Sequence record: PV029541
DNA length: 64,000 bases
Strand: one strand, 5' to 3'
Source of the DNA: Escherichia phage PBM-2
Below, one piece after another: positions 1,049 through 60,350 of the stretch; the first letter of the stretch is position 1; each line of letters opens with the position of its first letter. The notes under the pieces are model-generated. The model was not told where the DNA came from. It saw only the letters and a program-made list of their open reading frames with translations, and made no database searches. A program made the translations under genes and the position numbers.

Positions 1049-1056
1049 TCAACCAC

Positions 1057-1086
1057 TAGACTCCCTTCGGGGAGTCTTTTATTTTT
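1057..1086 (+). terminator. rho-independent terminator (approx. coords)
   Basis: 8-bp GC-rich stem tagactccc/gggagtct with TTCG loop followed by T-run. Confidence 0.6.
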
Positions 1087-1191
1087 AACTAGACGATAAT
1101 CTATTTCTACTTTTTGAGTATCTTTAGACGAAGGGTACTGAAACAGTAACCAGATAGATATAGATTTATATTAGATGAAGGAGTAACCATT

Positions 1192-1377
1192 ATGCGTACA
1201 GTATGTAACCGTTATAACTCACAAAAGTTGATTGTTATGTTACAACCTTGGGGTAGTAAGATGTCTCTTAATGCTCGTTGGCAGGTATCTGTAGAAGATA
1301 AGAATGGTCAGCATTATGACCACTTCTTTGTAGCTAAACCTACTCGTAAACAAATCCGTAAACTTCATAAGGTGTAA
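1192..1377 (+). CDS. hypothetical small protein (61 aa)
   Basis: ORF track; AGGAG-like RBS (gaaggag) upstream of ATG. Confidence 0.35.
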   Translation: MRTVCNRYNSQKLIVMLQPWGSKMSLNARWQVSVEDKNGQHYDHFFVAKPTRKQIRKLHKV

Positions 1378-1381
1378 GACT

Positions 1382-1600
1382 ATGTTGGACTTCATTGCGT
1401 TTGTAATACTCTGTTATGTGCTGTATCGCCTACGTGGTTACATTCTCAATGGAGCCAAGTGGGTAAGAACTAAGCTGGTACTTATTTGTAAGTTACCAGT
1501 TGTATTCGTTAAGTGTCTGTTTGCTTCCATCATAGCTAAAGAGGTACGTAAGCAACTCTGGGCTAAAGAAGCAGAAGAGTTTGCAAAGAGGAACCAGTGA
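1382..1600 (+). CDS. small putative membrane protein (72 aa)
   Basis: ORF track; hydrophobic N-terminal segment FIAFVILCYVLY; tight spacing to upstream gene. Confidence 0.35.
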   Translation: MLDFIAFVILCYVLYRLRGYILNGAKWVRTKLVLICKLPVVFVKCLFASIIAKEVRKQLWAKEAEEFAKRNQ

Positions 1601-1897
1601 TATTCACTAACATTGAGGATGCCATTGAAGAATGTATCTTTCGTAGATATCACACTGGTGTACAGAAACGACACTATGGTGTTGTACAACTCAATGGCTA
1701 TCAAATGGTTGTAAGAATTGTACGTAACAACAACAAGCCTTTTAACTTTATGTGGAGTACCAAACATGCGTAAGTCATTAATCATGGGAACCAAAGCTGA
1801 CGTACAGAAGATGAAGGAACGTCTGGCTGCTAAGCAACAGACATCTGAACCAGTACGTAAGATTGTTACTTACAATCATCCATGTATCAAATAGTAA

Positions 1898-1935
1898 GGA
1901 GTCCTCCAATAGGAGGCTCCTATTTTTTATTTTTG
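1898..1935 (+). terminator. rho-independent terminator (approx. coords)
   Basis: ggagtcctcc/ggaggctcc stem with AATA loop followed by tattttttatttt. Confidence 0.55.
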
Positions 1936-1971
1936 AATAGTTAGATATGTATTTAAATAGGAGAAATAATC

Positions 1972-2286
1972 TTGAATGAAATAGTATGTATACTTCCTCA
2001 CCAAGCTAAAGTAGCTGACAGGAATATACGGGTACATTTACCATTCCCATTAAGTAATCCATTTGCTCGTAATGAAAGAACCACAGTAGAAGATATAGAG
2101 GTAGCTTATGAAGCTTACCTTCGTAATCGTCTTATTAATGGTGACAAGTTAATTACAGCAGAGATGGAAAGGATTGCTGGCTTTGTAACTGATAGTACAG
2201 GTAAACCTGTTGGTTTAATTGGTACTGAATCTGATGTTAACGTTATTCGTAAAATACTGATGGAGGCACTCGGTGAACAATCTTAG
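1972..2286 (+). CDS. hypothetical protein (104 aa, TTG start in track)
   Basis: ORF track; AGGAG 9 nt upstream of TTG; no motif recognised. Confidence 0.35.
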   Translation: MNEIVCILPHQAKVADRNIRVHLPFPLSNPFARNERTTVEDIEVAYEAYLRNRLINGDKLITAEMERIAGFVTDSTGKPVGLIGTESDVNVIRKILMEALGEQS

Positions 2287-2518
2287 TGATGTCATCGTAG
2301 ATAAAACAATATTAGTAAATCCCAAAGGGTATGCCTGGTTCATGCTAAAGCATACCCGTAAGGTATATGTTAGAAAGGTATATATACGTAACTTTGGTAA
2401 GTTATCTTACAGAGAAGTACGTATTAATAATGAGATGTACTTTCTAGATGAATCAGTGATTATCAAATCAACTGAAGACAGAAAGGCTCCTTACTTTAAC
2501 TATTACGGATTCAACTAA
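2273..2518 (+). CDS. hypothetical protein (81 aa)
   Basis: ORF track; overlaps upstream stop (coupled arrangement). Confidence 0.3.
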   Translation: MNNLSDVIVDKTILVNPKGYAWFMLKHTRKVYVRKVYIRNFGKLSYREVRINNEMYFLDESVIIKSTEDRKAPYFNYYGFN

Positions 2519-2519
2519 A

Positions 2520-2741
2520 ATGATGTACTCAACTGATTATGGTGTTTGCCCTGTATGTAACAAACGTAAAGGAGTTGCTAATCATAAGCGTTGTAGTCGT
2601 ATATTACAGAAACAACGGAACCAGAAAGAATGGGATAAGCTGTTGGAAAACCAGCGTAAAGAAGAAAATCAACAGATGGCTGTTAAGGCATCTACTCAAC
2701 GTATTCGCCGTATTAACTATATACAGGGGTATCAGAAATGA
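2520..2741 (+). CDS. hypothetical basic protein with CxxC pair (73 aa)
   Basis: ORF track; CPVCNKRKG...KRCSR, possible zinc ribbon; very basic. Confidence 0.35.
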   Translation: MMYSTDYGVCPVCNKRKGVANHKRCSRILQKQRNQKEWDKLLENQRKEENQQMAVKASTQRIRRINYIQGYQK

Positions 2742-3094
2742 GACTAATCGTAGCTGGTGGAAGAGACTTCGTAAATACCAATCTTATGATTGAGGAATTA
2801 CAGAAGTTAGTAAATTCAGGGAATATACCTGAATGTCCGGAATTAGTATGTGGTATGGCTCGTGGAGCAGATATGCTTGCATATAGTCTATGGGCTAATA
2901 ACAAAATGCCTATTCATAATTTCCCAGCAAACTGGGATAAACATGGTAAATGTGCTGGTTATAAACGTAACCTGGAAATGGGTGAATTTGCAGATGCTGC
3001 TGTATGTTTCTGGGATGGTAATTCCAAAGGAACCAAGCACATGATTGATATCATGTATAGGCTTAATAAACCCGTATACGTTGTGAGGTACTAA
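2738..3094 (+). CDS. SLOG-type Rossmann-like protein (DUF2493-like), putative nucleotide-binding
   Basis: N-terminus MRLIVAGGRDF and GMARGADMLA glycine-rich motif resemble my recollection of DUF2493/SLOG-family phage proteins. Confidence 0.45.
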   Translation: MRLIVAGGRDFVNTNLMIEELQKLVNSGNIPECPELVCGMARGADMLAYSLWANNKMPIHNFPANWDKHGKCAGYKRNLEMGEFADAAVCFWDGNSKGTKHMIDIMYRLNKPVYVVRY

Positions 3095-3349
3095 ATGATT
3101 ATTACATATCCTACAGGCAAGACTGTGGAATATATGAAGCACACCATTCAAGTACCTCACTGGGTTAAGTATATAGCTTTATTACCACGTCAATATAAAA
3201 GTGCTAATACCTCATTAATAGGATTCTCTAAGAAGCCTAAGCTAACAGAAAACAATATCTGGGTATCCTCTGGGAGACAAGAAGAAATTGGTTTTTGTGA
3301 TTTGAGTATTGTCGATAATAACATCTATGGGACATTGAGAAAGGTATGA
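3095..3349 (+). CDS. hypothetical protein (84 aa)
   Basis: ORF track; abuts neighbours with no gap. Confidence 0.3.
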   Translation: MIITYPTGKTVEYMKHTIQVPHWVKYIALLPRQYKSANTSLIGFSKKPKLTENNIWVSSGRQEEIGFCDLSIVDNNIYGTLRKV

Positions 3350-3660
3350 AAACTATTCTAGTAGTTCATGATTCTACATTTACAGATGTAGATAAAATGA
3401 TGCGTAATATTGATTATGTATCTCAAACAAGCCAGGCATTCAATGAAGAATTTACCCTCTACTGCAATGCTGAATCTCCACTGGTTCCTATCCTTAAAGA
3501 ATCAGGTCTACCATTCTCTACAGAGAACTTCCCGGAAGAACCAGACTATGTAATCTCATTCATTTATGACTTACATGATGGTTCTGAAACTAGTGAACTA
3601 GCTATGAACCAGTGGCGTAGTAAACGTCCTGTGTTCGCATTCCAGGTACTTAAGCCATGA
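3346..3660 (+). CDS. hypothetical protein (104 aa)
   Basis: ORF track; 4-nt overlap with upstream gene. Confidence 0.35.
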   Translation: MKTILVVHDSTFTDVDKMMRNIDYVSQTSQAFNEEFTLYCNAESPLVPILKESGLPFSTENFPEEPDYVISFIYDLHDGSETSELAMNQWRSKRPVFAFQVLKP

Positions 3661-4893: not shown

Positions 4894-4946
4894 GTAATAG
4901 CTGCTCCGCAGCTTTTGGTTATTAATCACATTTAGGAGAATAAGCG

Positions 4947-30668: not shown

Positions 30669-31466
30669 ATGTCACTGTTCAGTAACTTGAAAGAAAAAAC
30701 CAAAAACGTTGAAGCTGTAAAAGACTCCCTTGGTGGTGGTGGCTTCGGTGCAAAGGAGTCAGATATCTACACCGGTACTGTAAAAGTAGCTTACGTAGGT
30801 AAAGCTGACTCTGGTGCAGACTGGATGCAGTTAATCATTGAAAACCTGAAAGGTTCTGATGGTAATGATGCTGGCGAGTTCCGTTCACAGGTGTACTTCA
30901 CTTCTGGTAATTCTAAAGGCAATAAGCCTACTTACGAGAAGAATGGTAAAGAATACTTCCTGCCAGGTTATACCGTCATCAATGACATGATGCTGATGGC
31001 TACCGGTACAGAACTGCCTGAAGCTGACTTCGAAGAGAAGATTGTTAAAGTCTATGACTTCGATGCTAAAGCAGAAGTTAATAAATCTGTCATGGTTCCA
31101 GTTGACCTGGTTGGTCAGACTGTTACCTTTGCTCTGGAAAAAGTTCTGGAATCCAAGCAGGTTAAGGGTGACAACGGTTACGTTGATTCCGGTGAAACCC
31201 GTGAAGTAAACGAGATTCAGAAAGTGTTTCACCCGGAACTGCTGGTCACAGTCGTCGAGGCTCAGGAAGCAGAGAAGGCTGAGAAAGAACTGACCCCAGA
31301 ACTGGCTGTATTTTATGCAGCATGGTTAGAAAAGAACAAGGGTAAAACCCGTGATAAGACCAAGGGTTCTGCTGGTGGTAATGGCAAAGGTGGCTTGCCT
31401 CCTAAACCAAGTGCTGGCACGGGTACTGCTCCTGCTGGTGGTAAATCACTGTTCGGTAAACGTTAA
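30669..31466 (+). CDS. putative single-stranded DNA-binding protein
   Basis: 265 aa with Gly-rich flexible C-terminal tail (GSAGGNGKGG...GKSLFGKR); position between ATPase and resolvase; synteny-based. Confidence 0.4.
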   Translation: MSLFSNLKEKTKNVEAVKDSLGGGGFGAKESDIYTGTVKVAYVGKADSGADWMQLIIENLKGSDGNDAGEFRSQVYFTSGNSKGNKPTYEKNGKEYFLPGYTVINDMMLMATGTELPEADFEEKIVKVYDFDAKAEVNKSVMVPVDLVGQTVTFALEKVLESKQVKGDNGYVDSGETREVNEIQKVFHPELLVTVVEAQEAEKAEKELTPELAVFYAAWLEKNKGKTRDKTKGSAGGNGKGGLPPKPSAGTGTAPAGGKSLFGKR

Positions 31467-35318: not shown

Positions 35319-35436
35319 TTCAAAAGTGTAAGGTAGTTTTTACCGAAAGGTACTGAACTACCCGACATGTGGTAAGGCTCATGAAGCCAAAACAAAACAA
35401 GCCCTCCTAGTGAGGGCTTTCTCATTTGAGGTAGTT

Positions 35437-35937
35437 ATGTCAGAAGAAATTAAAGTCCATTTTACCAATTATATCGGAACCAAGTGTGTAAATGGTTTCC
35501 GAATGAACAAAGAAACATACTGCAAACTTCGTGGCTGGGATGTACCTGCTAATGAAGACCCATTAGAAGAAGGTTACTTAGTAGAGTACCCAGACTCTAA
35601 GTCTAACCATCCTCAGTTCCGTGGCTATATTAGCTGGTCACCTAAATCTGCATTTGAAACTGCGTACCATGACGTAGAAAAAGGTTGCACCTTTGGTCAT
35701 GCAGTAGAGCTTCTCAAATCCGGCTTCAAACTAGCCCGTAAAGGCTGGAATGGTAAAGGAATGTACATTGAGTACGTTGCTGCTCAAGAATGGAATAGCA
35801 GTAGCTTAGAGCGTCCAGGACTTGCTGATGAATTGAAACCTCGTCCATGGTTAGGAATCAAAACTGTTGATGACCAGTTTATGCCTTGGGTCCCATCCCA
35901 ATCAGATATATTAGCTGAAGACTGGGTGTTAGTTTAG
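35437..35937 (+). CDS. DUF2829-like protein, candidate Tad2-type anti-Thoeris sponge with N-terminal extension
   Basis: Track ORF 35410..35937; C-terminal half has LARKGWNGKGMYIEYV and terminal PWVPSQSDILAEDWVLV, matching hallmark strings of the DUF2829 family as I recall them. Confidence 0.5.
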   Translation: MSEEIKVHFTNYIGTKCVNGFRMNKETYCKLRGWDVPANEDPLEEGYLVEYPDSKSNHPQFRGYISWSPKSAFETAYHDVEKGCTFGHAVELLKSGFKLARKGWNGKGMYIEYVAAQEWNSSSLERPGLADELKPRPWLGIKTVDDQFMPWVPSQSDILAEDWVLV

Positions 35938-35940
35938 TAA

Positions 35941-35975
35941 AAATTAAAGCCCCTCTAATGAGGGGCTTTTTCATT
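35941..35975. terminator. bidirectional intrinsic terminator between convergent genes (approx. coords)
   Basis: 8-bp stem aaagcccct/aggggcttt flanked by an A-run on one side and a T-run on the other; lies between a plus-strand gene end and the vRNAP stop. Confidence 0.55.
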
Positions 35976-38900
35976 TAGTTAGCTAGATTGAGCCAAGGGT
36001 TAAGGTTATGGGCACGAAGTCCCTGACCGAAGCCCCAGGAGTAACCGAGATTGCCTTGTGCAGCAATACTGAAGATGTTGTCCTGAATAGGTAAACCAAC
36101 ATTACCAAACATGGTAGGAGTTGGAGCCAACATAGCCATAGCTGCGTGTACCGGGTTGTTACGAATCATGGATACTGCAATTTTTGCAGAACGAATCTTA
36201 AAATTATAGAACCACATAAGACCAACACTTTCCATATACCCACGGAAGCGACCAGGCAGACGGTCATAGTTAATGAACTCTTCCGTTACACGTCCAAGTG
36301 CTTCTTCACGAGTCTTACCTTTACGCTGAGTCAAATCATCATAGATGATTGCTTTAGCAATAAAGTCAGAGTACTCAACCGTCTTCTGGATACCCTGGAA
36401 TAAAGCAGTATCCTTGGTGATAAGGGCATAACGTCCAGCATTACGTACAGACTTAGGTAACTTATCAGCCAGTTTATCCATGTATTCGTGAAGTTTACCT
36501 TCAGTAATCAGGATGTCATCTCGTCCAATACCAGCATCTGCAATTGAAGAAAACTCACCAGCTTCTAACAGAGGCCAGATACTCATACGCTTATGACTAT
36601 CAGTGATGGACTGAATTTCAGCCTTAAGCTTACGAATCTGGTTCGGGTTAGTAGCTGCACGTAATTCTGCTTCTGCATCTACCTGACGCAGACGAGATTT
36701 CAGGTACTGGTTAATCTCAGCAGTCTTCTGTGGAATGCTCTTAGCAATGTTCTTAACAGGTACACCACGACCAACCATCTGGTAAAGGTTAGCCAGGAAG
36801 TTAACAGCAGGAACAACTACTGATTTAACTACAATCAGAGTCTTAGCTTCTTTAACTAAGTTTTGAACCAGGTTCTCACCACCCATTACATACTTATAAG
36901 CACGGTTGCCGAATACACCCAACATAGCTTTCTTGAAGGTATCCAGTGTTTCTGGTGACCAACGAGAATTGCCAGACCAGGCATCACCTACGGAAGCTGC
37001 ACGATAGCCCAGTGCATCATTCAGCATGTCACGACGTACCCACAACTCACCAGGACCAAACAGACTTTCTGCTTTCTGACGAGTTTCACTGTTCATCAGC
37101 TTAAGGGCATCAGCAGTTACTGGGTCCAGTTTAGAACCAAGAAGGTTAACGTACTGTGACTTGTTAGAGGCAGACATTTTAATGTCGTTTTCATACATGC
37201 TATGCAGGTTCTCAATCAGCATATCGTTAAAACGCTGAGCCTTAGCTTCCTCTACCTGACGACCACGCCATACACCGATTGCACGAGCGAGATGGTTCTC
37301 ACCCTCAATGTGCTTCAGCATGTTAGGGTCAATAGATTGCTCATAAGCAACCACATTGCCTTTATCATCATATACAGGCAGCAGTGGTTCATTACCACGT
37401 TCACCGCGAGCCAGTGCTTTAGTGATACGGTCTACAGAAGGCTTGTCAGTGATACGACCAGCTACCATTGTACCCATCGTAAAGCCTGTACCAAGGTCTA
37501 CACCACCAGCAGTATTGCGAACGTTCTGTAAGATACCTTGCGAGAATGGAGCCTGTGCCTGTACCGGTGCAAAGTAGTAGCTACGTGCTGGACCACGATT
37601 AGCAGAGCTACCCTGATAAGTACCCAGACGTACATAGGACTTCTCAATCAAATCAGCAAACTGACTATCTTCAGCAACAATCAAGTTAACACCCTGTTTA
37701 GTCTCACCAGGAATATACCCTTTGTACTGGTTCAGAGTTGCACGAGTATCAGATTTGGCTTTAGCCATTTCATCTTTACGCTGACCAACCAGATAAGAAG
37801 TAGCGAAGTCCATGCCTTCAATCTCTGTCTGAGCCAGTGAAGATAACATCTCACGGTCAGTCTTACTCATTGCTTCCAGTGCATACAGAGTAATCAGTTT
37901 ATCCAGTTGAGCTACATCTACAGTAGAACGTGCAGCCTGTCGTTCACCCAGCATACGAGAGATTGCAGTAGCATTACGCAGCAAGTTATTACCAACTGTG
38001 CCATTAATCATGTACTGAGCCAGTTGCTTAGATTTACGGCTAATCAAAGGCCAGTTACGTCCTGCTTGTTTCTGCAAATCTGCTTCCAGCTTATTCACTT
38101 CACGGTCAACAATCTTTTGGTCAGTCAGCAAGTCACGAATTTCACCCAGAGACATAGTGTCACGCAGAACAGCTAAGTCGGTTTTACCCATACCGGTATG
38201 CATTGCTTTCCACTCATCATTAGTAAGCTTACGGCTGAACTTAGATGCAATAGTGGTAGGCAAATGTTCACGGAACTGCTGACGGTCAGCCTGTACCTGT
38301 GCACGCACTGCTTTAATCAAATCATATACAGAAGCATTGCTCTTAGTACGACCAGTTAAGTCATTAACCAGGTCATGGAAAGGTTGCCATACCTTACCCT
38401 GGTTCATTGCAGCCATAACACCCTCAGCTACGATTGCACCATTTTTCTCTGTAGCAATAGCAGCTATTAGTTGTGCAGCATGAGCAGCACCTTTAACCAA
38501 CGGGTTCTTGGTATTAGCTGCAACTTCACGAGCACCCTCTAAAGCACGGGTAGACAGTACATCAATAGAATCCACCAGATACTGGTTAGCACGGTCGATA
38601 GCATTACCACTAGGAGTAGCAATGGAATCATAGAAGGACTGCGCATTGAGACTCGTCTGCATGATTGTCTGAGCCAGTGCATCCATACCTTCCTGTACGT
38701 TGGTAGCTTTAGTATCTCCTGCTACACGAGCATTCAGACTAGCCATTGCAGCAGTACCGATGTTAGTCAGCATTGCATCAGCGGTATTGCCAGATTTCTT
38801 GTCTACTTTCATAACAGGAATGTCAGCCAGTACTTTACGCACTTCTTCACTTACCATTGCCAGACCAACAAAGGTAGGCAGTAAGGAAGAACGGCCTTGT

Positions 38901-41900
38901 GCATCAAACTCAATGTTGTTAGCACCCATGATGGTATCGAACTTCTGCTGTGCATAGTAACGGTCAGCAGGGTTAGTACTATCTGGGTCAGCCATGAATG
39001 ACTCAACGGTCAGGTTCTTAGTAACATGTGTGTAGTATTCCTGTGCACGAGCCAGAGCAGCAGGATTAATAGCAGCTTCAGTAGCCAGTGCAGCAACAAT
39101 GTTAGTAAAGAGACGTTGTTCCTGCATATTCATAGTGAAGCCATGAGCCTGAACATCACGAGTTACTTTAGTCGCATTAACCACTGCATCAGAGAACTTA
39201 CCTTTACGAATTACTTGCTGTACTGGTTCAGAACCAATGTAGTCAGTAATCAGTTTATCGAAGGTTTTCCCTAGCTCTTCCAGACGAGTATTGTCACCAT
39301 ACGTTTTGTTATGGAACAGAGTAGTATCTTTGGCTACAGCAGCAGTAGGAGCTTGCCCACGCATAACTACGGACGAGTTAAACAGTAAGCCAGAGAACAT
39401 ATCATCTGCATTAGCTGGTGCTTTCTTACGCCCAAATACCAGACGCTTGATTGCTTCATATACAGCCTGAACCATAGTCTTCAGTGCAGTGGTTTTCTTC
39501 TGCTTACTAATCAGTTCACGGTTAGTTAAACCCCATGCCATGTACTCATTCAGTGCAGCAGCTTTAGCCATTGCTGGCTCAATGAAGCCATTAGATAGAT
39601 GACCGTTAATAGTATTAAGAGCATCTGCATATGCTTCCCGAACTGCCGGGGATTCATCCTTAACATCCAGAGCACGGAACTGGTTCATCAGGTCTTCAAT
39701 GTTCTGGACCGCTTCATTAGGAGTACCCTCATAGTGAGCCAGTACAGATTCAAAAGTAGAAGCATGCACCAATTCATGAACCAGAGTCTCTAAGGAAGGG
39801 GTAACTAAGTAGATGGTCTTATCTTCAAAGTTAGTCCAACCATACGCATTACCAGCTTCAGCAGCTTCAATATCTTCTGGTGCTGGGCGAGTAATATTCT
39901 TCTCAATAGCATAAGCATCCAGTTGGGAAGGTGTACCGTAAACAACCTTATAATCTTTAGCAGCAAGGGATTTCTGTACTTCTTTCAGTACTGCTTGCTG
40001 TTCCGGAGACATCTCTTTAGCCAGCTTAGAGATAGCAGTATTAGACAGTAGGCGTACACCAGACTTCAGTACACGACCAACCTGTTCCATTGCTGGCACT
40101 TCTTTCACTGGTTCTACTTTAGCAGCACGTACTGCATCACGACGTTTGTTTAATTCAGCATCGAACAGTTCATTTAGCTTAGCTACTTGTTGGTCTACGG
40201 TCAGACCTTCCAGAGAGATTTTACCGTTGTTCACATAAGGAGCACCAACAGCAGCCATCTGGTCAACAGTAGTCTGTACCTGGTTCATTACTTTGTGACG
40301 AATATCTACACCCAGAGCAATATTACGCAGGTTACGTTCAATCTGTTCAGCACCAACACGTAACAGGTCATCGGTAGCACCTTCACGCTGGTCATATTCC
40401 AGAGCAGATTTAGCGATAGCCTGTTTGGTTTCATCAGATAGTTTGCTGAAGTCTACGTTCTTCATGAACTTAGTAAAAGACTCATAAACATTCTTGATAG
40501 GGTTACCCTGCCAGGAAGTGTATACAGCCTCGTTAGCTTTACGACTTGCATCAGTGATGTTGTCGATACCAATGTTCATACCATCAAAGATTTTCAGGGT
40601 ATTCTTCGGAGCACCTTTCATAGTAGAAAGGGTCTGCATCATCATGCCATCACCAGTGCCAATGGTCATAAATGGAATACCTGCAACGCCTGCCTGAGAA
40701 GGAGCATAGATGCTCATTGGCACACGCATACGGTCATCTAAGTTGGTAGCCAGTACCTGGTTAGCAACATCAGTATTCTCACTACCAGCAATATAGAAAG
40801 TCTGTGAACCAGTCTCAATCATTGGAGCCAGTGGAGACAATGATTCCTGAATTTCATTCAGTTCTTTCTGTGTTAAGAAATCACCCTTCTTCCAGGTTGG
40901 GTCTTTTTCTTTTTCTGCCAGCTTAGCCTGTACTGCTTGTTGGAACATGTCTTGTAGAACCAAAGACTGAATCTGGGTAGCCTTCTGCAAGTTCTCAGTA
41001 GAATGCATCAGACCTTCCCCAACAGTATTCCGGATACCAGTACGCATTGGTTCAACGAACAGGTGAAGCATGTTCTCTTGTAAGTTCTTCAGGGCATTAC
41101 CCGATACGGTAAACTTCTGAGGGTCTAACTTACCAGTCAGAGCACCTTCTACCTGTTGAATAGACAATTCACCTTTACGCATAACTGGAACATTACCAGT
41201 CAGTGCTTCCATAGAAGTAAGGAAAGTATCCAGCATAGCCTGAGCATCAGCCTCAGACGCAGCCTCCTTACCAAACATTGCCATAGCTGGGGAAATACTA
41301 GGGTCAGCAGCACGAGCTTGCAGAACATCACTGAAGCGTTCATAGATGGTATCAGTAATTGCACTAACCATCTTGCCAGCAATACCACGAGCACCTGAAC
41401 CATAGATGGTAATGGTCAGTGGGTTTTTAGCGATACCACGTTTTAGGTCCAGAGTACCGTCTTCATTCAGGTTAAAGTCTTTAATAAACAGGTCCATTAA
41501 CTTCTGAAGATGATTCATTTGGTTCATAACCGGAACGTTGTTACGGTAAGTAGTACGTAACTCATTAAGTGCTTGTTGCAGACCATTGGTAGATGCTTCA
41601 TACAGGTCAACACTGTCATCCTGTGAACGATGCTCATTCATAGTCTTACCAGCTTTACCGAAGAACAGACCACCTTTAGCAGTATTCTTAATCCAGTCTG
41701 AAGTGAACTTACCACCTGTCATTAATATCATTGCGTTGATTGGTCCGTTGGTTACACCATCGGCTTCAACGTACAGTGGGGTATTAAAGTTGGCACGGTC
41801 ATCACTGTTCAGGTAACGGGCATATTCCATAAGAGCCATGAGAGCTACGAATGATTTATCGCCACCCAAAGAAGTCTTCAGAATATCTACTGCATCAGCT

Positions 41901-44900
41901 GGTAAGTGGCCAGACTTATCAAACTCAACCATCATATCAACAGCAGGTTTCAGATTACCTTCCAGAGCTTTGGTCAGCTTTTCAGACATAGCTTCACGGG
42001 ACATATTATGTACCTTGATACCCAATGCCTGAGCCAGTCCTAGCTGGAAGTCAGAGAATGTTTGGCTGTTTTCATTACTCAAGTCAATAGTAGAGAAGGT
42101 TGGCAGAATTGCTTCACGAACCAGTTTACTGGATTGTGGGTTGTTCTTACCTAACATCTGCATACGACCTACACGGGTCATGTTGTAACCATAGTGAATA
42201 GGCGTATCCAGACCATTCTCCTGTTCCTGTAACTGGTTGATTACACCGAACAGGGAATCATATGCCATAGACACTGACAGGTTTTTACCCTCCAGTGACT
42301 TAGCAGTGTTCACGTTCAGCAGTTCAGGATTAAGAGTACCAGCACCCATCAGTTCCAGAATGTTGTCACGACCTAATGCTTCATAGAAGTTAACCATCGG
42401 CATGTGTACACGGAACTCGGTAGCCTGTTCTGCTTTAAGAGCAGCTTTCTGCTCTGGGGTATTCTTAACAGCAGGGTTACGTAACTGAGTTTGAGCCACG
42501 GAAGGAATATCATCACCAAAGTACATTTTCTCTTCTGGTTCTACGAGAACAGCTTCCTCGATAGCAGTAGGGAACTTGTTAATGGCATCGTTATCATCCA
42601 GCTTCTCAATGGTATACAGACCGACGGTCTTATTAGAGTCTGGGTCAATCTCAGACACATCAAGCATAGACTCTTTAACTTCACCCATCTCAATGAGAGA
42701 AGACAGAATCTCTGTAGCCATTGCCATTGGAATACCTTTGGTATAACCCAGTGGTGCATTAGGATTACGATTCAATCCCCAGTAAGATTCAATCTTTTGA
42801 GCCAGTGAGTTAGTAGCTTCAACCAGAGTCTGAGCATTCTCAAATTCAGCCAGGATACCTTCAGGTAACAAGGATGCTTCTACTCCAGTAATAGCAGCTA
42901 CATCTTTCATGTCTTTAACAGCAGCATTCTGTGTAGCAGTCAGTCGCCATTGCAGACCAGCAAGTACAGCAGTCTCTAACAACTGGTCATTGAACTTAAA
43001 GGTGTCTCCGTCTTTCTCTACGATATTAAGTAACTTACCACCTACCCAACGGTTAGCCTCTGTGCCTTCTGCAAAGCGTTTACCAACGTTCTTATTAGCA
43101 AGAAACTTAGCCAGACGATCAGACAGAGTAGTCTTCAGAGTTTCACCAAAGCCCATTAAGTCCTGATAACGCTTAATCACATCACTTGTGAGAGCGTTAT
43201 TTTCTTTTTGAGTGAATGCTTCAAAGCGTGCAGTAGAAGACAGTGCTTGCTTAATATCAGTCAAAGGGGATTCAGAACCAATGGTGCGAGACTTAGGTTC
43301 TTCCGGCAGGGTAAATGATTTCAGGAACTGGTTCGGTGTCTTGTCATTGTTATAGACAGGGAAAACTGTTTCCATTTCCGTTTTAGTTTCAGCTACTTTT
43401 TGAGTGGTATCCTCATTGGTGAGGGTAGCATCTACTGTTTCAGACTTAGTAGTAGAGACTTCTTCTGCTTTTGAACTAGCCTCTTTAACAGGAACAGTCT
43501 TATTTTCTACCACTGGTTTAGCTTTAGGCTGTACAGTAGTAGTAGTAGTCTCTTGCGCTGGTGCAGGAGTTTCATCAACCTGATTCACTGGTTCATTGGT
43601 CTGTTGAGACTGAGTGGCATCAAGACCACCTTGACGGAACTCTTTAACTACCTGGGCAGCAGGCTTGTCCAGACGTGAATCTAATGGAGTAACCTTCACA
43701 TGAGAAACATTAAGCTCCGGGTAAGCCGTAGCAAGTGCGTTAGCAATATCAGCTACGGTTTTGGCCTCCAGTCCTACTTGCTGGGCAAACTTAACCGACT
43801 TGGTATCATACGGATTGACACCAAGACCAGTACGACTACGTACCCATTCACGGGAGGGAGTAAGAGCCTGATAATGGACAGACTTATTCTTATCCGCATT
43901 CCCAGAAATCAGATGCTCATTCAACGCTCCGACCTTATTCTGCATGTGCTGGGCGAACTTCATAAAGTCGTCGAGGTAAGCGGAAGCCAAATCGAAGTTA
44001 CCAGAGTTGTACGCAGAACGAATGCGTTTAGCATGTTGCAACGCAGAGTACTGACCTTCATTAGAACGAGACTCGTCGGTTTTAATCTGTTTACTAACAA
44101 TGTCTTGAGGACGTAAGCCTAGTTCTTCTGCTTTAGCGTCAAATTCTCGTGCTCCTTGCAATAGAGCAGCAGCAGATTGCAGGGCAGCACGCTGACGATT
44201 CCCCAGTGTAATCTTACCTTCACTTGCATGTTTCAGAACCATGTTCACTGAGTCTGCATCCAGTACTTCTGGAGACATATCAGCAGCCATAGCAATGTTG
44301 TTTGCTTGGGCTTGGTTAGCTTCTTCGGTAGCTTTCAGTTTACCTGCTTCAGCCTGTTCCTGAATCATAGAATGGATGGCACGGAATGCACGAAGTACCT
44401 TTGGTGTATTCTGAACGTTAGCCATCAGGCCGGAGAACTGGTCAACAATATTAGCAGCAGGAGAACCCTGTTCCAGATTAGCTAAAGCACCAGGATCACG
44501 GTTAATGAAGCTATCCATAGACATGATGTTGTCATACATCTGGATTGCAGCTTCCATTTGAACGTTAGGGTCTTCAGTAGTATTAACCAGGTCTGCCATC
44601 TTCTGAATAGCTTCCACACGGTTAGTGGAACCAGAAACAGCTTCACGGATTGTAGGACTAGCTTGCTCCAGTTCTACTGGGTCAAACTTCATTGCCTGAG
44701 TTAAGTCAGCAGCATACTGAGTAGCAGCAGCTTTCTCTTCAGGAGAAATGTCCATTGCATCTACTGCTTCCTGTACAGTTGCTTGTGCTTGTTCTGCTTG
44801 AGCAGTAGCTTCTTGTGCAGCAGCATTAACCGTAGCATCTGATACAGGGGATGCTTGCTCATTACGCTTAGCAACTTCTTCGCCACGCTGAACCAGGATG

Positions 44901-46330
44901 TTAGTAATAGGAGAGGCAGCTTTTGCTAATGCACTACCAACCAGAGAAGCACCAGCCAGAGTAGTACGTAAAGCAGGCCCAGCAGAAGCACCAACAGCTT
45001 TAACAGTTGTACCTGGAGCCTGAGCAACACCAGCACTACCGAAGCCGTAGAGTGCACCAAGACCTGCTTGCTCACCGACACCTTTAAGCAAATCACGCTT
45101 AGCATCTACATTACCCTGAATTGCCTTGTTCTGTGCAAACTGACTTGTACCAGACTGAATACCTTCTTCTACTGTTTCACGTAGCATGTTAGAACCAGCA
45201 CCAGCCAGCGAACCTACCTTAAGTGGGTTAAGTTCAAATTTGGATACCAGAGGACCAGTAGCAGCAGCAACCGGAGCAGTTAAGCCAGCAGCAATGATAC
45301 CCGTTTCAGATGCAGTTTGGCGACGTGCTTCATCAGGAGATAAACCATCAGCGATATGCTGTTGATAAACAGGAGACTTACTTGCCAATTCTTGATGGGA
45401 CATCTTCATGATTTCGGAAGCAGTCTGTTGGTATGCACCACCAGCTTCCATACCACCAATTGCAATAGCAGGTGCAGCAACACGACCAGCAGACAATGCA
45501 ACCTGTGCAGGACGTGAACCTAACTCAGCAGCTAAGGTAATACCCTTAACAGCTTTATCACCACCTACCATTACTTTACCGAGTGCAGATACACCACGAA
45601 TTAATGGACCACCGGTAAAGAGAGAACCAACACCTTCACTCAGCCCATCAGTAGCAGCCATACCATTATCAAGCGTATTAGCAACAGAATCAAAAGCATC
45701 ACGACCAATACGAGACAGAGAGGCAACCAAACTGCTCTCTCCATTTTTAATGTCTTCTTCGTAGAGTTTCTGGTTCTTTTGTGCAGAAATCTGGTTCTGA
45801 TTCTGAACAACCTTACGGGTAGCATTCAGTGCGTCAGACTGTAGATTGTGTACCCCTTCATTCAGCCAATCCATCCCGGAAGCAATGGATGCCCCGGCAT
45901 TATCATTGACCAAACCCGTACCAAGAGCAGCAATGCCCCCAAGGGTATTAGCAACACCAAGACCAACACCAGAAAGAGTATCACCAAATGCTTCTGCGTT
46001 AGTACGTTGCTTAGATAAGTCCTGACGTACAACATCAGCAGCATTAGCTCGGCTATTAAGAATCTGTAGACCTTGCTCATTACCGTATTTATTAAGAATT
46101 TCTAATGGGGAGGCTTGAGTGAAATCTGCCTGAAGTGAACCTGGTTCGAATGCACCGATTCCAAGATTACCTACACGACCAGTTTGGAGATTGTAAGCAT
46201 TCTCTGGGGTTAATTGGAAAGGGCTTTGCCCTTGTGCAGCTTGCTTCTGAGAGGTTGCAGTAGAGACATCGACTTGCTTAGCATTAGTGATGCTGTCTGC
46301 GAAACCTGCCAGACGGTCAAATGTTGACAT
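35975..46330 (-). CDS. virion-encapsidated RNA polymerase (N4 gp50-like giant vRNAP)
   Basis: About 3450-aa ORF; central region has YVEADGVTNGP (motif A-like Asp) and KIFDGMNIGIDN (motif C-like Asp) as in N4 mini-vRNAP as I recall it; track start is TTG at 46348, ATG at 46330 has AGGAA RBS. Confidence 0.85.
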   Translation of the reverse strand: MSTFDRLAGFADSITNAKQVDVSTATSQKQAAQGQSPFQLTPENAYNLQTGRVGNLGIGAFEPGSLQADFTQASPLEILNKYGNEQGLQILNSRANAADVVRQDLSKQRTNAEAFGDTLSGVGLGVANTLGGIAALGTGLVNDNAGASIASGMDWLNEGVHNLQSDALNATRKVVQNQNQISAQKNQKLYEEDIKNGESSLVASLSRIGRDAFDSVANTLDNGMAATDGLSEGVGSLFTGGPLIRGVSALGKVMVGGDKAVKGITLAAELGSRPAQVALSAGRVAAPAIAIGGMEAGGAYQQTASEIMKMSHQELASKSPVYQQHIADGLSPDEARRQTASETGIIAAGLTAPVAAATGPLVSKFELNPLKVGSLAGAGSNMLRETVEEGIQSGTSQFAQNKAIQGNVDAKRDLLKGVGEQAGLGALYGFGSAGVAQAPGTTVKAVGASAGPALRTTLAGASLVGSALAKAASPITNILVQRGEEVAKRNEQASPVSDATVNAAAQEATAQAEQAQATVQEAVDAMDISPEEKAAATQYAADLTQAMKFDPVELEQASPTIREAVSGSTNRVEAIQKMADLVNTTEDPNVQMEAAIQMYDNIMSMDSFINRDPGALANLEQGSPAANIVDQFSGLMANVQNTPKVLRAFRAIHSMIQEQAEAGKLKATEEANQAQANNIAMAADMSPEVLDADSVNMVLKHASEGKITLGNRQRAALQSAAALLQGAREFDAKAEELGLRPQDIVSKQIKTDESRSNEGQYSALQHAKRIRSAYNSGNFDLASAYLDDFMKFAQHMQNKVGALNEHLISGNADKNKSVHYQALTPSREWVRSRTGLGVNPYDTKSVKFAQQVGLEAKTVADIANALATAYPELNVSHVKVTPLDSRLDKPAAQVVKEFRQGGLDATQSQQTNEPVNQVDETPAPAQETTTTTVQPKAKPVVENKTVPVKEASSKAEEVSTTKSETVDATLTNEDTTQKVAETKTEMETVFPVYNNDKTPNQFLKSFTLPEEPKSRTIGSESPLTDIKQALSSTARFEAFTQKENNALTSDVIKRYQDLMGFGETLKTTLSDRLAKFLANKNVGKRFAEGTEANRWVGGKLLNIVEKDGDTFKFNDQLLETAVLAGLQWRLTATQNAAVKDMKDVAAITGVEASLLPEGILAEFENAQTLVEATNSLAQKIESYWGLNRNPNAPLGYTKGIPMAMATEILSSLIEMGEVKESMLDVSEIDPDSNKTVGLYTIEKLDDNDAINKFPTAIEEAVLVEPEEKMYFGDDIPSVAQTQLRNPAVKNTPEQKAALKAEQATEFRVHMPMVNFYEALGRDNILELMGAGTLNPELLNVNTAKSLEGKNLSVSMAYDSLFGVINQLQEQENGLDTPIHYGYNMTRVGRMQMLGKNNPQSSKLVREAILPTFSTIDLSNENSQTFSDFQLGLAQALGIKVHNMSREAMSEKLTKALEGNLKPAVDMMVEFDKSGHLPADAVDILKTSLGGDKSFVALMALMEYARYLNSDDRANFNTPLYVEADGVTNGPINAMILMTGGKFTSDWIKNTAKGGLFFGKAGKTMNEHRSQDDSVDLYEASTNGLQQALNELRTTYRNNVPVMNQMNHLQKLMDLFIKDFNLNEDGTLDLKRGIAKNPLTITIYGSGARGIAGKMVSAITDTIYERFSDVLQARAADPSISPAMAMFGKEAASEADAQAMLDTFLTSMEALTGNVPVMRKGELSIQQVEGALTGKLDPQKFTVSGNALKNLQENMLHLFVEPMRTGIRNTVGEGLMHSTENLQKATQIQSLVLQDMFQQAVQAKLAEKEKDPTWKKGDFLTQKELNEIQESLSPLAPMIETGSQTFYIAGSENTDVANQVLATNLDDRMRVPMSIYAPSQAGVAGIPFMTIGTGDGMMMQTLSTMKGAPKNTLKIFDGMNIGIDNITDASRKANEAVYTSWQGNPIKNVYESFTKFMKNVDFSKLSDETKQAIAKSALEYDQREGATDDLLRVGAEQIERNLRNIALGVDIRHKVMNQVQTTVDQMAAVGAPYVNNGKISLEGLTVDQQVAKLNELFDAELNKRRDAVRAAKVEPVKEVPAMEQVGRVLKSGVRLLSNTAISKLAKEMSPEQQAVLKEVQKSLAAKDYKVVYGTPSQLDAYAIEKNITRPAPEDIEAAEAGNAYGWTNFEDKTIYLVTPSLETLVHELVHASTFESVLAHYEGTPNEAVQNIEDLMNQFRALDVKDESPAVREAYADALNTINGHLSNGFIEPAMAKAAALNEYMAWGLTNRELISKQKKTTALKTMVQAVYEAIKRLVFGRKKAPANADDMFSGLLFNSSVVMRGQAPTAAVAKDTTLFHNKTYGDNTRLEELGKTFDKLITDYIGSEPVQQVIRKGKFSDAVVNATKVTRDVQAHGFTMNMQEQRLFTNIVAALATEAAINPAALARAQEYYTHVTKNLTVESFMADPDSTNPADRYYAQQKFDTIMGANNIEFDAQGRSSLLPTFVGLAMVSEEVRKVLADIPVMKVDKKSGNTADAMLTNIGTAAMASLNARVAGDTKATNVQEGMDALAQTIMQTSLNAQSFYDSIATPSGNAIDRANQYLVDSIDVLSTRALEGAREVAANTKNPLVKGAAHAAQLIAAIATEKNGAIVAEGVMAAMNQGKVWQPFHDLVNDLTGRTKSNASVYDLIKAVRAQVQADRQQFREHLPTTIASKFSRKLTNDEWKAMHTGMGKTDLAVLRDTMSLGEIRDLLTDQKIVDREVNKLEADLQKQAGRNWPLISRKSKQLAQYMINGTVGNNLLRNATAISRMLGERQAARSTVDVAQLDKLITLYALEAMSKTDREMLSSLAQTEIEGMDFATSYLVGQRKDEMAKAKSDTRATLNQYKGYIPGETKQGVNLIVAEDSQFADLIEKSYVRLGTYQGSSANRGPARSYYFAPVQAQAPFSQGILQNVRNTAGGVDLGTGFTMGTMVAGRITDKPSVDRITKALARGERGNEPLLPVYDDKGNVVAYEQSIDPNMLKHIEGENHLARAIGVWRGRQVEEAKAQRFNDMLIENLHSMYENDIKMSASNKSQYVNLLGSKLDPVTADALKLMNSETRQKAESLFGPGELWVRRDMLNDALGYRAASVGDAWSGNSRWSPETLDTFKKAMLGVFGNRAYKYVMGGENLVQNLVKEAKTLIVVKSVVVPAVNFLANLYQMVGRGVPVKNIAKSIPQKTAEINQYLKSRLRQVDAEAELRAATNPNQIRKLKAEIQSITDSHKRMSIWPLLEAGEFSSIADAGIGRDDILITEGKLHEYMDKLADKLPKSVRNAGRYALITKDTALFQGIQKTVEYSDFIAKAIIYDDLTQRKGKTREEALGRVTEEFINYDRLPGRFRGYMESVGLMWFYNFKIRSAKIAVSMIRNNPVHAAMAMLAPTPTMFGNVGLPIQDNIFSIAAQGNLGYSWGFGQGLRAHNLNPWLNLAN

Positions 46331-46393
46331 AGCATGTTTCCTGTTCAAACTTATATCGTATATAGAAAGCTTACTCTACAGTAAGCCAGTGTA

Positions 46394-46418
46394 AGAAAAA
46401 AGCCCCGAAGGGCTTTTG
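46394..46418 (-). terminator. intrinsic terminator upstream of vRNAP gene (approx. coords)
   Basis: Minus-strand RNA would read stem aaagccc/gggcttt then UUUUUUC. Confidence 0.5.
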
Positions 46419-46424
46419 TTAGTA

Positions 46425-48389
46425 TTACCGATTTTGTCTTGGTTGCATATACTCAGGCAAACCCTGTGCCTGACGTAAATACCGTGCAGCACGTTCTTCA
46501 TCTTCCTTGGCTCGTGCTCTGTCCATACTAGCCTGTGACCGGAAACCTCTTGGAGCCAGGTTAGATGGGTCTGCTTGAACTTGTGCTTGAGCAGCTTGTA
46601 GCATTGCAGCAGCTTTAGTAACAGCTTCCTGACGAGCAGGCAACAATGCAGTAAGTCCTGTTTGTCCGGTGTTAATCTTGTTCTGGGTATTTGTCAGTGC
46701 AGCTACAGCAGCATCATAAGCAGTCTGTGCTGCCTGAATATTCTGCATGGCTTGAGCACGACCAAGGTTACGCACACTGCCTTCCAGTGGTTCACCACGT
46801 TGTACACCCTCAATTAACTGATCTACCAGACGGTCATTAAGACGCATACCATTACCAGCTTCATTGGTAATGAATGGGTTAACCGCATCAATAGCACGGC
46901 TAATGTAACCTTCAGGTACACCAGTCTGTGCACGTTGCATAACAGCAGCAGCCATAGCTGGAGACATATTCCCACGTTGAGAAATATCAGTTAATCGGTT
47001 AAGTACCCAGTTACGGTCAGCACCCTTAAAGTCACCATCCAGTAGACGATTAGCAATCTCACCTACTGGAGTATTATCGGTGACAGTACCCAGGAAATCG
47101 GTATTAAGGCTACCGGTATTATCCTGCATAGAGCGAGTACCAATCATACCCTGAGCCAAGGTAGATACTGCCTGATTTCCCTGATTATTCTGAAGCAGAG
47201 AGAATGGGTCAGCCCCTACTTCAGCTTGGGCAATAACAGGTTTAATCTGTTCCCAAGTCATATCCTTATAAGCACCTGGGGTAGAGTTAGGTAAAGCAGC
47301 CCAGGTATCTTTAAGGTTACCATTCTTACGAGCCTCAAAAATAGCCTTACCAATCTTCTCCTGGTTCTCAGGGGAAAGAGGTTGGTTCTGCCAATCTGAA
47401 CCAAGAACTTTGGGGGCAAAGTCTTTCAAGGTAGCTTGGTTAATCTGAAATGCACCAACAGGGGAAGCACCCTGGTTCGATTTCATACCATCCTGGTGTT
47501 TAATTACATCACCAATACTCATTTGAGTAATAGGAGTAGATGTACCAGCAAACTGATAAGTAACATCGTAAGGTGAACCCTGACGAGTACCAGCAGTACC
47601 AGGAGCAGACGTAGCACCTACACCATTACCGTAAACACCCGGGTAAGCATTAGCCAGTAATCCCTGCAAGCGTGCCTGTGCAACTGGAGACAGGTTCTTA
47701 CTGTATGCTTCTGCCAACAGACGGGCATCATTAGGGTTCTCAGCACCACGGGTAATCTGTGCCATTACACCCATAGCTGCCTGACTATCGGCATCATTAC
47801 GTTGAGCAACACCCAAATCAAAACGATTGCTCGCCTGATTAATAGCAGCACTACCCTGTCCTTGTAAACTACCTAACAATTCTAACTGTTGGTCAGCTGG
47901 GAGCGTAGATAATGCCTCACGAGTCTGACCCAATGCAGTATTAATACGATTCTGGTCACCAGACTGATAAGCCTCAGACAATAAACGAATAGCCGGAGAA
48001 GCATTATCTAGTGCTGAGTTAATATCCTTTAAGCGACCAAAGCGATATGCAATGTAGTCATTGGTTCCCTGCTGTCCTTGTTGAGTCAGCAGTGTACCTG
48101 CTCGCTCATCCAGATTCTGGAGAGTACGCTGGTTTACCAATGAAGGGTCAACCCCCTGAAACAGTGCACCTGATGCCAAAGCATTACGGTACTCAGTAGG
48201 ATCTTGATACTGCATAGCATTCATCATGACGGCATTGCCAGCCTCCTGCTTGGCAGCGTTCTGGAAATTACCCAGTGCATCACTTAAGCCAGAGGTGGCG
48301 TTACCAATCATGTTGCCAAATGTGCGAATGCTGTCACCTACTCCAGAGAAGTTAGGTGCATCAACATTACGCCATGTAATTTGAGCCAT
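46425..48389 (-). CDS. putative virion protein (654 aa)
   Basis: ORF track; Gln/Ala/Asn-rich; located in virion module next to vRNAP. Confidence 0.45.
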   Translation of the reverse strand: MAQITWRNVDAPNFSGVGDSIRTFGNMIGNATSGLSDALGNFQNAAKQEAGNAVMMNAMQYQDPTEYRNALASGALFQGVDPSLVNQRTLQNLDERAGTLLTQQGQQGTNDYIAYRFGRLKDINSALDNASPAIRLLSEAYQSGDQNRINTALGQTREALSTLPADQQLELLGSLQGQGSAAINQASNRFDLGVAQRNDADSQAAMGVMAQITRGAENPNDARLLAEAYSKNLSPVAQARLQGLLANAYPGVYGNGVGATSAPGTAGTRQGSPYDVTYQFAGTSTPITQMSIGDVIKHQDGMKSNQGASPVGAFQINQATLKDFAPKVLGSDWQNQPLSPENQEKIGKAIFEARKNGNLKDTWAALPNSTPGAYKDMTWEQIKPVIAQAEVGADPFSLLQNNQGNQAVSTLAQGMIGTRSMQDNTGSLNTDFLGTVTDNTPVGEIANRLLDGDFKGADRNWVLNRLTDISQRGNMSPAMAAAVMQRAQTGVPEGYISRAIDAVNPFITNEAGNGMRLNDRLVDQLIEGVQRGEPLEGSVRNLGRAQAMQNIQAAQTAYDAAVAALTNTQNKINTGQTGLTALLPARQEAVTKAAAMLQAAQAQVQADPSNLAPRGFRSQASMDRARAKEDEERAARYLRQAQGLPEYMQPRQNR

Positions 48390-48401: not shown

Positions 48402-48866
48402 TTAACGGGTTAATTTATTAGCTGCAATATAAGCATCAGCAGTAGACTGGTCACGGTTCTCTGCTGTAGCACGACTACGAGCACGATCTTCCAGTGCAGT
48501 GTTATAAGACTTAATCTGGTTATTCAGGTTAGTGTTAGTAACACTCTTAGTAAAGTTCAACTGGTCTTTGGCTAACTTATTAGCCTGGAAACCACTGTAG
48601 ATATTAGCTAATGAACCAAGTGCACCCAGTCCTAATTGGAAGGTAGGTACATTCAATCCCAACTGATCAGCTGAACCAGACAGGAAAGAAGTAGGGGAGG
48701 CTACTCCTGTATTTGCCCCCATACCAATAGTTGCACCTGGGTTATAGTTCATAGCCGGGGTATTAAAGTTCTGATTGTTATTAGACATCCAAGACATAGC
48801 AGCTGGCTGTGGAGTTGGGTTGCCTGTTAAGAATGACAAATCCATGGGGATTCTCCTGTTAAACAA
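48402..48866 (-). CDS. putative virion protein (154 aa)
   Basis: ORF track; overlaps downstream gene start by 8 nt. Confidence 0.4.
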   Translation of the reverse strand: MFNRRIPMDLSFLTGNPTPQPAAMSWMSNNNQNFNTPAMNYNPGATIGMGANTGVASPTSFLSGSADQLGLNVPTFQLGLGALGSLANIYSGFQANKLAKDQLNFTKSVTNTNLNNQIKSYNTALEDRARSRATAENRDQSTADAYIAANKLTR

Positions 48867-52357: not shown

Positions 52358-52427
52358 TCCTCTTGGTTCAAAAAGAAACGGCCCACGGAGTTACCCCAGT
52401 GAGCCGTGTTGAACTGTAGCTTATACG

Positions 52428-53069: not shown

Positions 53070-53136
53070 ATTTCCTGTGGTTCATTCAGTTTTATTAAGA
53101 GGGGGACATTAGTCCCCCTTGTTTTATTTCGGACTA

Positions 53137-59913: not shown

Positions 59914-60092
59914 AAGATTACCGTAGTTATGTAGTTAGGAACCCCAATAGGGTCATATCATAAGATGACCATTAGATAATACTTAATATAATTAAAGGCA
60001 TCCAGGTATAGAATGTAGTCCTACCAAATCCTCAAAACCCACAAGGAGGTAATGAGCCTCCGATGGACTTCGATGACGATATTCCGTTTTGA

Positions 60093-60122
60093 TGATAAAA
60101 CTAACCCCGCCGAAGCGGGGTT
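60093..60122 (-). terminator. intrinsic terminator downstream of tail-fibre gene (approx. coords)
   Basis: 8-bp stem aaccccgc/gcggggtt, CGAA loop; minus-strand RNA continues GUUUUAUC. Confidence 0.45.
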
Positions 60123-60350
60123 TAGTGATTATTGTTAGGAAATATAAGCCGTAATAACCCAAACTACAGTATATGCTAACACTGGTACTAACTAATCCAA
60201 TAGACTAGGTAAGTCCCATGCTCGCCAGTCGAATCCACCCCACCAAGGTATATTGGCGCGCCTCCTGCACCCCACATACCTAACACAATGCCAATTCCGC
60301 TTTGGATAATGACAGCGGCCCCCGCATGTAATAATGGGGAAAATCATGCA

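Follow-up and report, generated by a model that had tools for sequence, protein, structure and literature searches.

The window analyzed in this work, a stretch of 64,000 nucleotides (nt) of Escherichia phage PBM-2 (PV029541) to which all coordinates refer, carries on its minus strand a giant gene that is virtually certain to encode an N4-type virion RNA polymerase (vRNAP), the homologue of gp50 of phage N4. Taken as a whole, and including the reading of the upstream spacer given below, the gene very probably specifies the virion-packaged, host-ejected RNA polymerase (RNAP) of a G7C-like (Gamaleyavirus) coliphage. The gene is already known, as a hallmark of the Schitoviridae present in a phage already sequenced, and nothing new comes from the gene itself. 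Of mild interest is the non-coding DNA ahead of it, where a terminator, a hairpin containing a candidate promoter element and a conserved box were found.

Over 10.6 kb (35900-46500) the DNA was 100% identical, without any difference, to that of Escherichia phage PBM-3 (PV053165; Gamaleyavirus, Schitoviridae), and with dozens of G7C-like (Gamaleyavirus) genomes the identity was 92-99%, other members of this genus also sharing the neighbouring genes and the terminator. Protein matches were obtained with phmmer (PDB chains), Pfam and PHROG families, and identities were taken from a global alignment with N4 gp50. The protein matched N4 gp50 from end to end (amino acids (aa) 1-3450 to 1-3499; chains 11gp/9pnq/9pnr, 5029 bits), the alignment being collinear over the whole length with a global identity of 65.9% and a range of 40-71% per domain. 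The crystal chains of the mini-vRNAP (2po4/3c2p/3q0a) covered aa 998-2070, and Pfam families PF21867, PF21624, PF21894, and PF21769 spanned aa 1293-2026 (matches vRNAP_dom_2, vRNAP_plug, N4_RNAP_helical, and vRNAP_dom; E from 1e-29 to 1e-101). All the features of N4-type vRNAPs that are open to sequence testing were present, among them a single polypeptide within the size range of ~3400-3750 aa and, at its centre, a T7-like polymerase domain that carries the catalytic motifs A, B, and C. A search for related loci with the N-terminal 440 aa returned close relatives only. GenBank records PV053165, PP301343, MZ394712, OM982646, and MH358458 are among those where the vRNAP is in several cases misnamed "DNA polymerase" or "translation initiation factor 2".

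The context of the gene was likewise that of N4. The order gp52-gp51-gp50 was found on the late strand, with the vRNAP gene last in the cluster of ejection proteins, and the window encodes a homologue of the single-strand DNA-binding protein (SSB) that activates the sigma-70-type late promoters of N4 (N4SSB); this homologue has, with 265 aa, the length that we take N4SSB to have. The vRNAP, gp51, and gp52 homologues (4252 aa together) contained no cysteine, as against 1-14 residues in the other large proteins of the window, and cysteine-free ejection proteins are a published trait of the Schitoviridae (PMC11445570). Early hairpin promoters cognate to such a polymerase, recognized as a stem, a TCC loop, a stem, and then yTwTGG, occurred on the plus strand in the form GCTCCGC-N4-TNTGG at 91-106, 541-556, and 4903-4918 (3 vs. 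0.5 expected), a form shared with the N4-derived KP8 promoters (PMC6950046). The positions of these three promoters place the start of the window near the genome's left end. In N4, the presence of vRNAP in virions and its ejection into the host have been shown (PMC4496689, PMC13434306), and by homology the PBM-2 protein would be carried and ejected in the same way.

The open frame listed on the minus strand (35975..46348) comprised 3457 aa counted from a TTG codon, and the chance origin of an open frame of 10.4 kb is far beyond expectation. Its translation opens with LNRKHAMSTFDRLAGFADS, and N4 gp50 opens with MSVFDRLAGFADS. The true start is the in-frame ATG at 46330, because the sequence MSTFDRLAGFADS aligned in phmmer with N4 gp50 from residue 1, and the product therefore has 3451 aa by this comparison. 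A first-pass annotation of this DNA, which had described an N4-type vRNAP of about 3450 aa encoded by roughly 10.4 kb, agreed closely with these values, and its assignment was confirmed by the full-length gp50 alignment, the Pfam domains and the catalytic residues. The two T7-like peptides quoted in it, YVEADGVTNGP and KIFDGMNIGIDN, were both present and corresponded to motifs A and C.

Alignment with N4 gp50 delimited the equivalent of the mini-vRNAP at aa 986-2069 and divided the remainder of the protein into the domains listed in Table 1. The aspartates D1524 (in YVEADG) and D1916 (in KIFDG) aligned with N4 D1556 and D1948, which we take to be D559 (motif A) and D951 (motif C) of the mini-vRNAP; residues R1631, K1635, and Y1643 of motif B were also conserved, and their N4 counterparts are presumably catalytic. 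The very large N- and C-terminal regions had been described in the first-pass annotation as being of unknown function, a statement that is now outdated since the structure of full-length N4 gp50 and the roles of its domains were published in 2026. In N4, the N-terminal domain (NTD) inserts in the membrane and genome injection depends on it, a low-complexity linker of ~100 aa comes next, and the C-terminal domain (CTD) is needed for encapsidation and autoinhibits the polymerase allosterically (PMC4496689; PMC13434306). Of the two subdomains of the N4 CTD, C1 holds an HExxH motif, and C2 is large and helical (PMC13434306). All large length differences among the Gamaleyavirus vRNAPs were located in the linker, which was longer than that of the window in G7C (+282 aa), PhAPEC5 (+116 aa), and ECBP1 (+106 aa), the window linker being among the shortest. 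This length variation fits a putative role as a passive tether.

The spacer between the gp51 homologue and the vRNAP gene was 94 nt long (91-110 nt in relatives) and presented a three-part layout common to four genera of Enquatrovirinae (N4, Gamaleyavirus, Moovirus, and Kaypoctavirus), in the order terminator, second hairpin (hairpin 2) with a -10-like hexamer, invariant CGATATAAGTTTG box, AGGAAAC, and ATG. The spacer alignment comprised 15 distinct Enquatrovirinae sequences, in which the conservation of hairpins was assessed with RNAalifold, and the table of upstream regions comprised 21 vRNAP genes of Schitoviridae.

The hairpin following the gp51 homologue is most probably a genuine terminator, functional for the host polymerase. 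It lies 7 nt past the gp51-homologue stop, has a fold energy of -11.2 kcal/mol and can also be read as a GCCC/GGGC stem plus a T6 tract, the classic intrinsic form. Our simple scanner, which requires at least 5 T in the tail after the counted stem, listed the hairpin on the plus strand only, the full 8-bp stem leaving 4 T; the ARNold-based annotation in the PhAPEC5 and PhAPEC7 records marks it as a terminator. It was kept in all 15 Enquatrovirinae sequences with 7 invariant pairs, and pSb-1, Jgk1, and locus L034 carried a stem variant with one additional G-C pair. Unrelated but equivalent hairpins with a T-run occupied the same junction in about ten distant genera (phages of Achromobacter, Pseudomonas, Erwinia, Stenotrophomonas, Rhizobium, and Salmonella). 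Host sigma-70 polymerase responds to intrinsic terminators. N4 late genes are transcribed by this host enzyme (PMC4496689). An Rfam scan of 35800-46700 (E up to 1) gave no match in the spacer and two sub-threshold chance matches near the 3' terminator of the gene.

Hairpin 2 differed in its stem from one lineage to another and yet stayed paired: GGCTTACT/AGTAAGCT in the window, TTACACTA/TAGTGTGA in N4, CTCACT/AGTGAG in Moo19, CACACT/AGTGTG in Kaypoctavirus, and ATTCACT/AGTGAAT in pSb-1. RNAalifold recovered it independently, with compensatory changes at 2 pairs. In single sequences its significance was modest (P from 0.02 to 0.4 per lineage, with the upstream bases shuffled), and the case for this hairpin therefore rests on the compensatory changes. 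Its loop and 3' arm spell GTAnAGT, invariant except for position 3 of the hexamer, where all four bases were seen (TAGAGT, TAAAGT, TATAGT, and TACAGT, depending on the lineage); T1, A2, and T6 were fixed and the third position was free, as in sigma-70 -10 elements. A TAnAnT hexamer was placed 31-42 nt before the ATG in 21/21 of the Schitoviridae upstream regions. In nine more distant phages the distance was 31-35 nt, and five of them (JWDelta, Axy10, inbricus, Meara, and Paxi) displayed the canonical TGn extension. A 6-bp hairpin with an unrelated stem surrounded the hexamer in Achromobacter phage JWDelta (GGGAGT/ACTCCC) and Burkholderia phage HN05 (AGGACT/AGTCCT), whereas other distant phages had no such hairpin, the pairing in Axy10, Frozen, Fifi067, and Zuri not exceeding 3-4 bp. 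N4 late promoters have been reported to resemble sigma-70 promoters weakly (PMC9163698), and the pattern in the window fits that description.

That hairpin 2 might act instead as a back-up terminator in tandem with the first, the hexamer in its loop being incidental, appears unlikely. The scan did list it as terminator-like, with an 8-bp stem followed by TTCTATAT; a T-rich TTCT follows it in all Enquatrovirinae, and compensatory stem changes are expected of an RNA hairpin. However, the stem contains just 3 G-C pairs and the T-run is interrupted, the hairpins of JWDelta and HN05 have no T residues after them, the hexamer persists in distant genera where the hairpin is often lost (Axy10, Frozen, Fifi067, and Zuri), and the GTAnAGT of the loop and 3' arm is kept far beyond what a terminator loop needs. 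Hairpin 2 was also compared with the hairpin promoters used by N4 vRNAP itself (5-7 bp stem, 3-nt loop with sense TCC, then yTwTGG) and was rejected as one of them, as its loops are of 4-8 nt and it lacks the GCTCCGC core, that pattern being found only at 91, 541, and 4903.

The third element of the spacer, the box, had its core invariant in 15/15 Enquatrovirinae sequences from the four genera, with variable flanks, and a single exact copy in the window, at the vRNAP gene. Its reverse complement, CAAACTTATATCG, occurred exactly in Erwinia phage Frozen at the corresponding position, immediately ahead of the ribosome-binding site, and near-exact inverted boxes were present in Erwinia phage Fifi067 and Pseudomonas phage inbricus. 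The antisense strand of the window spacer matched the sense strands of Frozen, Fifi067, and inbricus at 16/17, 15/16, and 13/14 positions, respectively, scores reached by shuffled sequences in 0.3% of the trials or fewer, and the sense-to-sense alignment of the spacer with these three phages gave no box match. As judged from these alignments, the conservation of the box in either orientation speaks for a site in double-stranded DNA and not for a signal in RNA. A pairing of GATATA with the start-codon region, forming a hairpin in the leader, was rejected, covariation being unavailable and the inverted box in other genera arguing against a role in RNA. A small antisense RNA from the plus strand, made up of the box, hairpin 2, and the bidirectional terminator, was rejected as well, since no convincing plus-strand promoter was found and the orientation varies between genera. 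The box was also discarded as a general late-promoter motif, with no convincing further copies in the window at up to 3 mismatches.

Such a site might be bound, independently of orientation, by a host-nucleoid or phage protein that represses or times vRNAP expression, a possibility that we consider doubtful. The invariance of the core between variable flanks and the equally placed inverted copies are in its favor, together with agreement at 7-8/10 positions with the high-affinity H-NS site TCGATATATT (PMC2094087), which is our own comparison and to be taken as a lead only. In PBM-3 and N4, the gp69 homologue, which is the first late gene, has a box-like GAyATAAsTTTG ahead of its ribosome-binding site, and this would point the same way. 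On the other side, the likeness to H-NS is partial and leaves the conserved AAGTTTGA half of the box uncovered, the host bacteria extend from Erwinia to Pseudomonas, with differing nucleoid proteins, the likeness in the gp69 leaders is not significant, and in Frozen the box was found at the vRNAP gene only. The consensus sites of IHF, Fis, CRP, DnaA, and LexA, compared by eye, did not fit the box. The same leaders of the first late gene (locus L060, PBM-3 2733-2925; locus L058, N4, gp69) share ACTGTAnnGTAnGnTTTCT with the vRNAP spacer, a likeness that was not significant in shuffles, and carry a GGGGT...ACCCC hairpin where the 5' end probably lies.

Whether the vRNAP gene has a promoter of its own, with TAGAGT as -10 element, is on the present sequence evidence an evenly balanced question. 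The first-pass annotation had deduced from the terminator that the gene is transcribed from its own promoter and is not read through from the preceding operon. The hairpin and U-tract on which it relied were indeed found, at 46393-46417, and the hexamer kept in 21/21 relatives makes a promoter plausible; the terminator by itself does not imply one, because read-through is routine at other late terminators. Thus, past the strong terminators of the major capsid gene (53099-53120) and the gp55 homologue (~52378-52407) the next ribosome-binding site comes within 10-40 nt, which leaves no room for a promoter, and the genes downstream, including gp51, are therefore reached by read-through. Several further observations weigh against an independent promoter. 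A sigma-70 consensus scan found no promoter in the spacer, and the -35 position of the candidate coincides with the T-run of the terminator. As a pattern in AT-rich DNA, TAnAnT is weak, and in Enquatrovirinae the TG abuts the hexamer rather than lying one base upstream. The likeness of the spacer to the DNA upstream of the gp69 homologue could be seen by eye and was not significant in a comparison that covered PBM-3, N4, and Frozen (shuffles, P of 0.15, 0.055, and 0.36). Read-through alone could suffice, as at the two other late terminators, and both terminator and promoter activity are predicted from the DNA. Finally, gp52-gp51-gp50 have been called one operon in N4 (PMC13434306), and in phage DEV co-transcription has been demonstrated by reverse transcription PCR (RT-PCR; PMC11445570).

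These same facts would suit pure attenuation, to which we assign a probability somewhat short of even. The vRNAP gene would then have no promoter of its own, read-through of a leaky terminator would set a low ratio of vRNAP to gp51, and the spacer would hold leader RNA signals for translation or stability. In keeping with leakiness, the hairpin after the gp51 homologue was the weakest among the late ones (-11.2 vs. -15.6 to -19.4 kcal/mol), and the absence of a -35 element and the reliance of other late genes on read-through agree with this explanation. Against it, the other two terminator junctions measure 67-70 nt, whereas the vRNAP junction keeps ~70 extra conserved non-coding bases; the -10-like hexamer is similarly placed in all 21 relatives, several of them with the TGn extension; and a 13-nt box that occurs in either orientation would not be tolerable for an RNA signal. 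The result in DEV is not transferable to PBM-2, because gp72 and gp71 of DEV abut with zero intergenic bases and their junction has no spacer. Two different designs, abutting genes (DEV) and genes with a spacer, were observed at the gp51/vRNAP junction of Schitoviridae.

Table 1. Positions of the vRNAP gene of phage PBM-2, its protein domains, the spacer elements and neighbouring genes in the 64,000-nt window.
Feature	Position	Strand	Details
vRNAP gene (N4 gp50 homologue)	35975..46330	-	10.36 kb; 3451 codons + TAA stop
N-terminal domain, aa 1-901 (N4 NTD 1-906)	43628..46330	-	59.7% identity to N4
T/E/K/P-rich low-complexity linker, aa 902-985	43376..43627	-	40% identity to N4 907-1006
Single-subunit RNAP domain (mini-vRNAP equivalent), aa 986-2069	40124..43375	-	70.6% identity to N4 1007-2101
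Motif A YVEADGVTNGP, aa 1520-1530, catalytic D1524	41741..41773	-	Aligns with N4 gp50 1552-1562
Motif C KIFDGMNIGIDN, aa 1913-1924, catalytic D1916	40559..40594	-	Aligns with N4 gp50 1945-1956
C-terminal subdomain C1, aa 2084-2327	39350..40081	-	60.7% identity to N4 2124-2375
HELVH (HExxH) in C1, aa 2185-2189	39764-39778	-	Kept with respect to N4 2228-2232
C-terminal subdomain C2, aa 2328-3451	35978..39349	-	70.8% identity to N4 2376-3500
Ribosome-binding site AGGAAA	46336..46341	-	From sequence; near-invariant in 15 relatives
Conserved box ATACGATATAAGTTTGA	46345..46361	-	Invariant 13-nt core CGATATAAGTTTG at 46346-46358
Hairpin 2	46368..46387	-	GGCTTACT-GTAG-AGTAAGCT; -10.0 kcal/mol
-10-like hexamer TAGAGT (candidate late promoter)	46373..46378	-	In loop and 3' arm of hairpin 2
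Intrinsic terminator (probable)	46393..46417	-	AAAAGCCC-TTCG-GGGCTTTT then TTCTT; 8-bp stem, TTCG loop, T6CTT
gp51 homologue (ejection protein, 654 aa)	46425..48389	-	phrog_6126, 1019 bits; TAA stop 46425-46427
gp52 homologue (ejection protein, 147 aa)	48402..48845	-	phrog_2646; PhAPEC7_58 annotated as similar to N4 gp52
Bidirectional terminator of vRNAP gene and convergent gp49 homologue	35946..35969	both	10-bp stem, 6 G-C pairs
gp49 homologue, convergent with vRNAP gene	35410-35937	+	
SSB homologue	30669-31466	+	265 aa; phrog_743 single-strand DNA-binding protein, E 6e-90

The features surrounding the gene are collected in Table 1. The counterparts of the gp51 homologue are annotated in PhAPEC7 and G7C as similar to N4 gp51. 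The terminator at the 3' end of the vRNAP gene had a fold energy of -18.1 kcal/mol and is annotated on both strands in PhAPEC7. Elsewhere on the late strand, 437 nt (59914-60350, minus) held no listed open reading frame of at least 100 aa and contained a terminator (60103-60122) and a GGTAGGACT motif.

Among known systems, the locus was compared with that of N4 gp50 (PDB 2PO4, 9PNQ, 9PNR, 11GP), with which it shares the domains, the catalytic residues, the HExxH motif, the gp52-gp51-gp50 order, and the three-part spacer; the window protein is 49 aa shorter, mostly in the linker, and the spacers differ in the stem of hairpin 2 and in the hexamer (TATAGT in N4 vs. TAGAGT here). Pseudomonas phage DEV also has a three-gene ejection set of cysteine-free proteins ending in a giant polymerase, gp71 (Litunavirus vRNAP; PMC11445570), but its gp72 and gp71 genes abut and are co-transcribed, in contrast with the terminator-containing spacer of PBM-2. 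Motifs A, B, and C are shared with the T7 RNA polymerase family, as is the right-hand fold in the N4 structures (PMC4496689, PMC13434306), whereas vRNAP, ~4 times larger and carried inside the virion, works from single-stranded hairpin promoters and possesses additional domains at its N and C termini.

Judged by its homology to N4 gp50, the PBM-2 vRNAP would be organized as beads on a string, with an NTD that would insert in the membrane, a flexible linker, the polymerase, and a CTD that would serve packaging and autoinhibit the polymerase; this T7-like single-subunit enzyme would begin early transcription at the DNA-hairpin promoters. Its own synthesis would be late, with the host sigma-70 RNA polymerase transcribing the virion genes of the minus strand. 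The terminator after gp51 would lower transcription into the 10.4-kb gene, whose product would be needed at only ~4 copies per virion. In the 70 nt from this terminator to the ribosome-binding site, we infer a weak late promoter without -35 element (-10 TAGAGT, 46373-46378), which would top up vRNAP synthesis or time it apart from that of gp52 and gp51.

As a tentative extension, to which we give a rather low probability, the ejection operon may be split in Enquatrovirinae and several other subfamilies of Schitoviridae, with the vRNAP gene separately controlled by a terminator, a -35-less promoter in a covarying hairpin, and an operator-like box of 16-17 bp; the box, inverted between subfamilies, would bind a protein, from the host or the phage, that determines the dose or timing of the polymerase. 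Structural papers, relying on gene order and on RT-PCR from a phage with abutting genes, treat gp52-gp51-gp50 as a single operon, whereas in most of the other lineages sampled, including N4, a terminator and a conserved promoter-like module separate gp51 from the polymerase gene. If functional, this module would explain how the synthesis of the 380-kDa product of a 10-kb gene, of which there are ~4 copies per virion, is kept limited.

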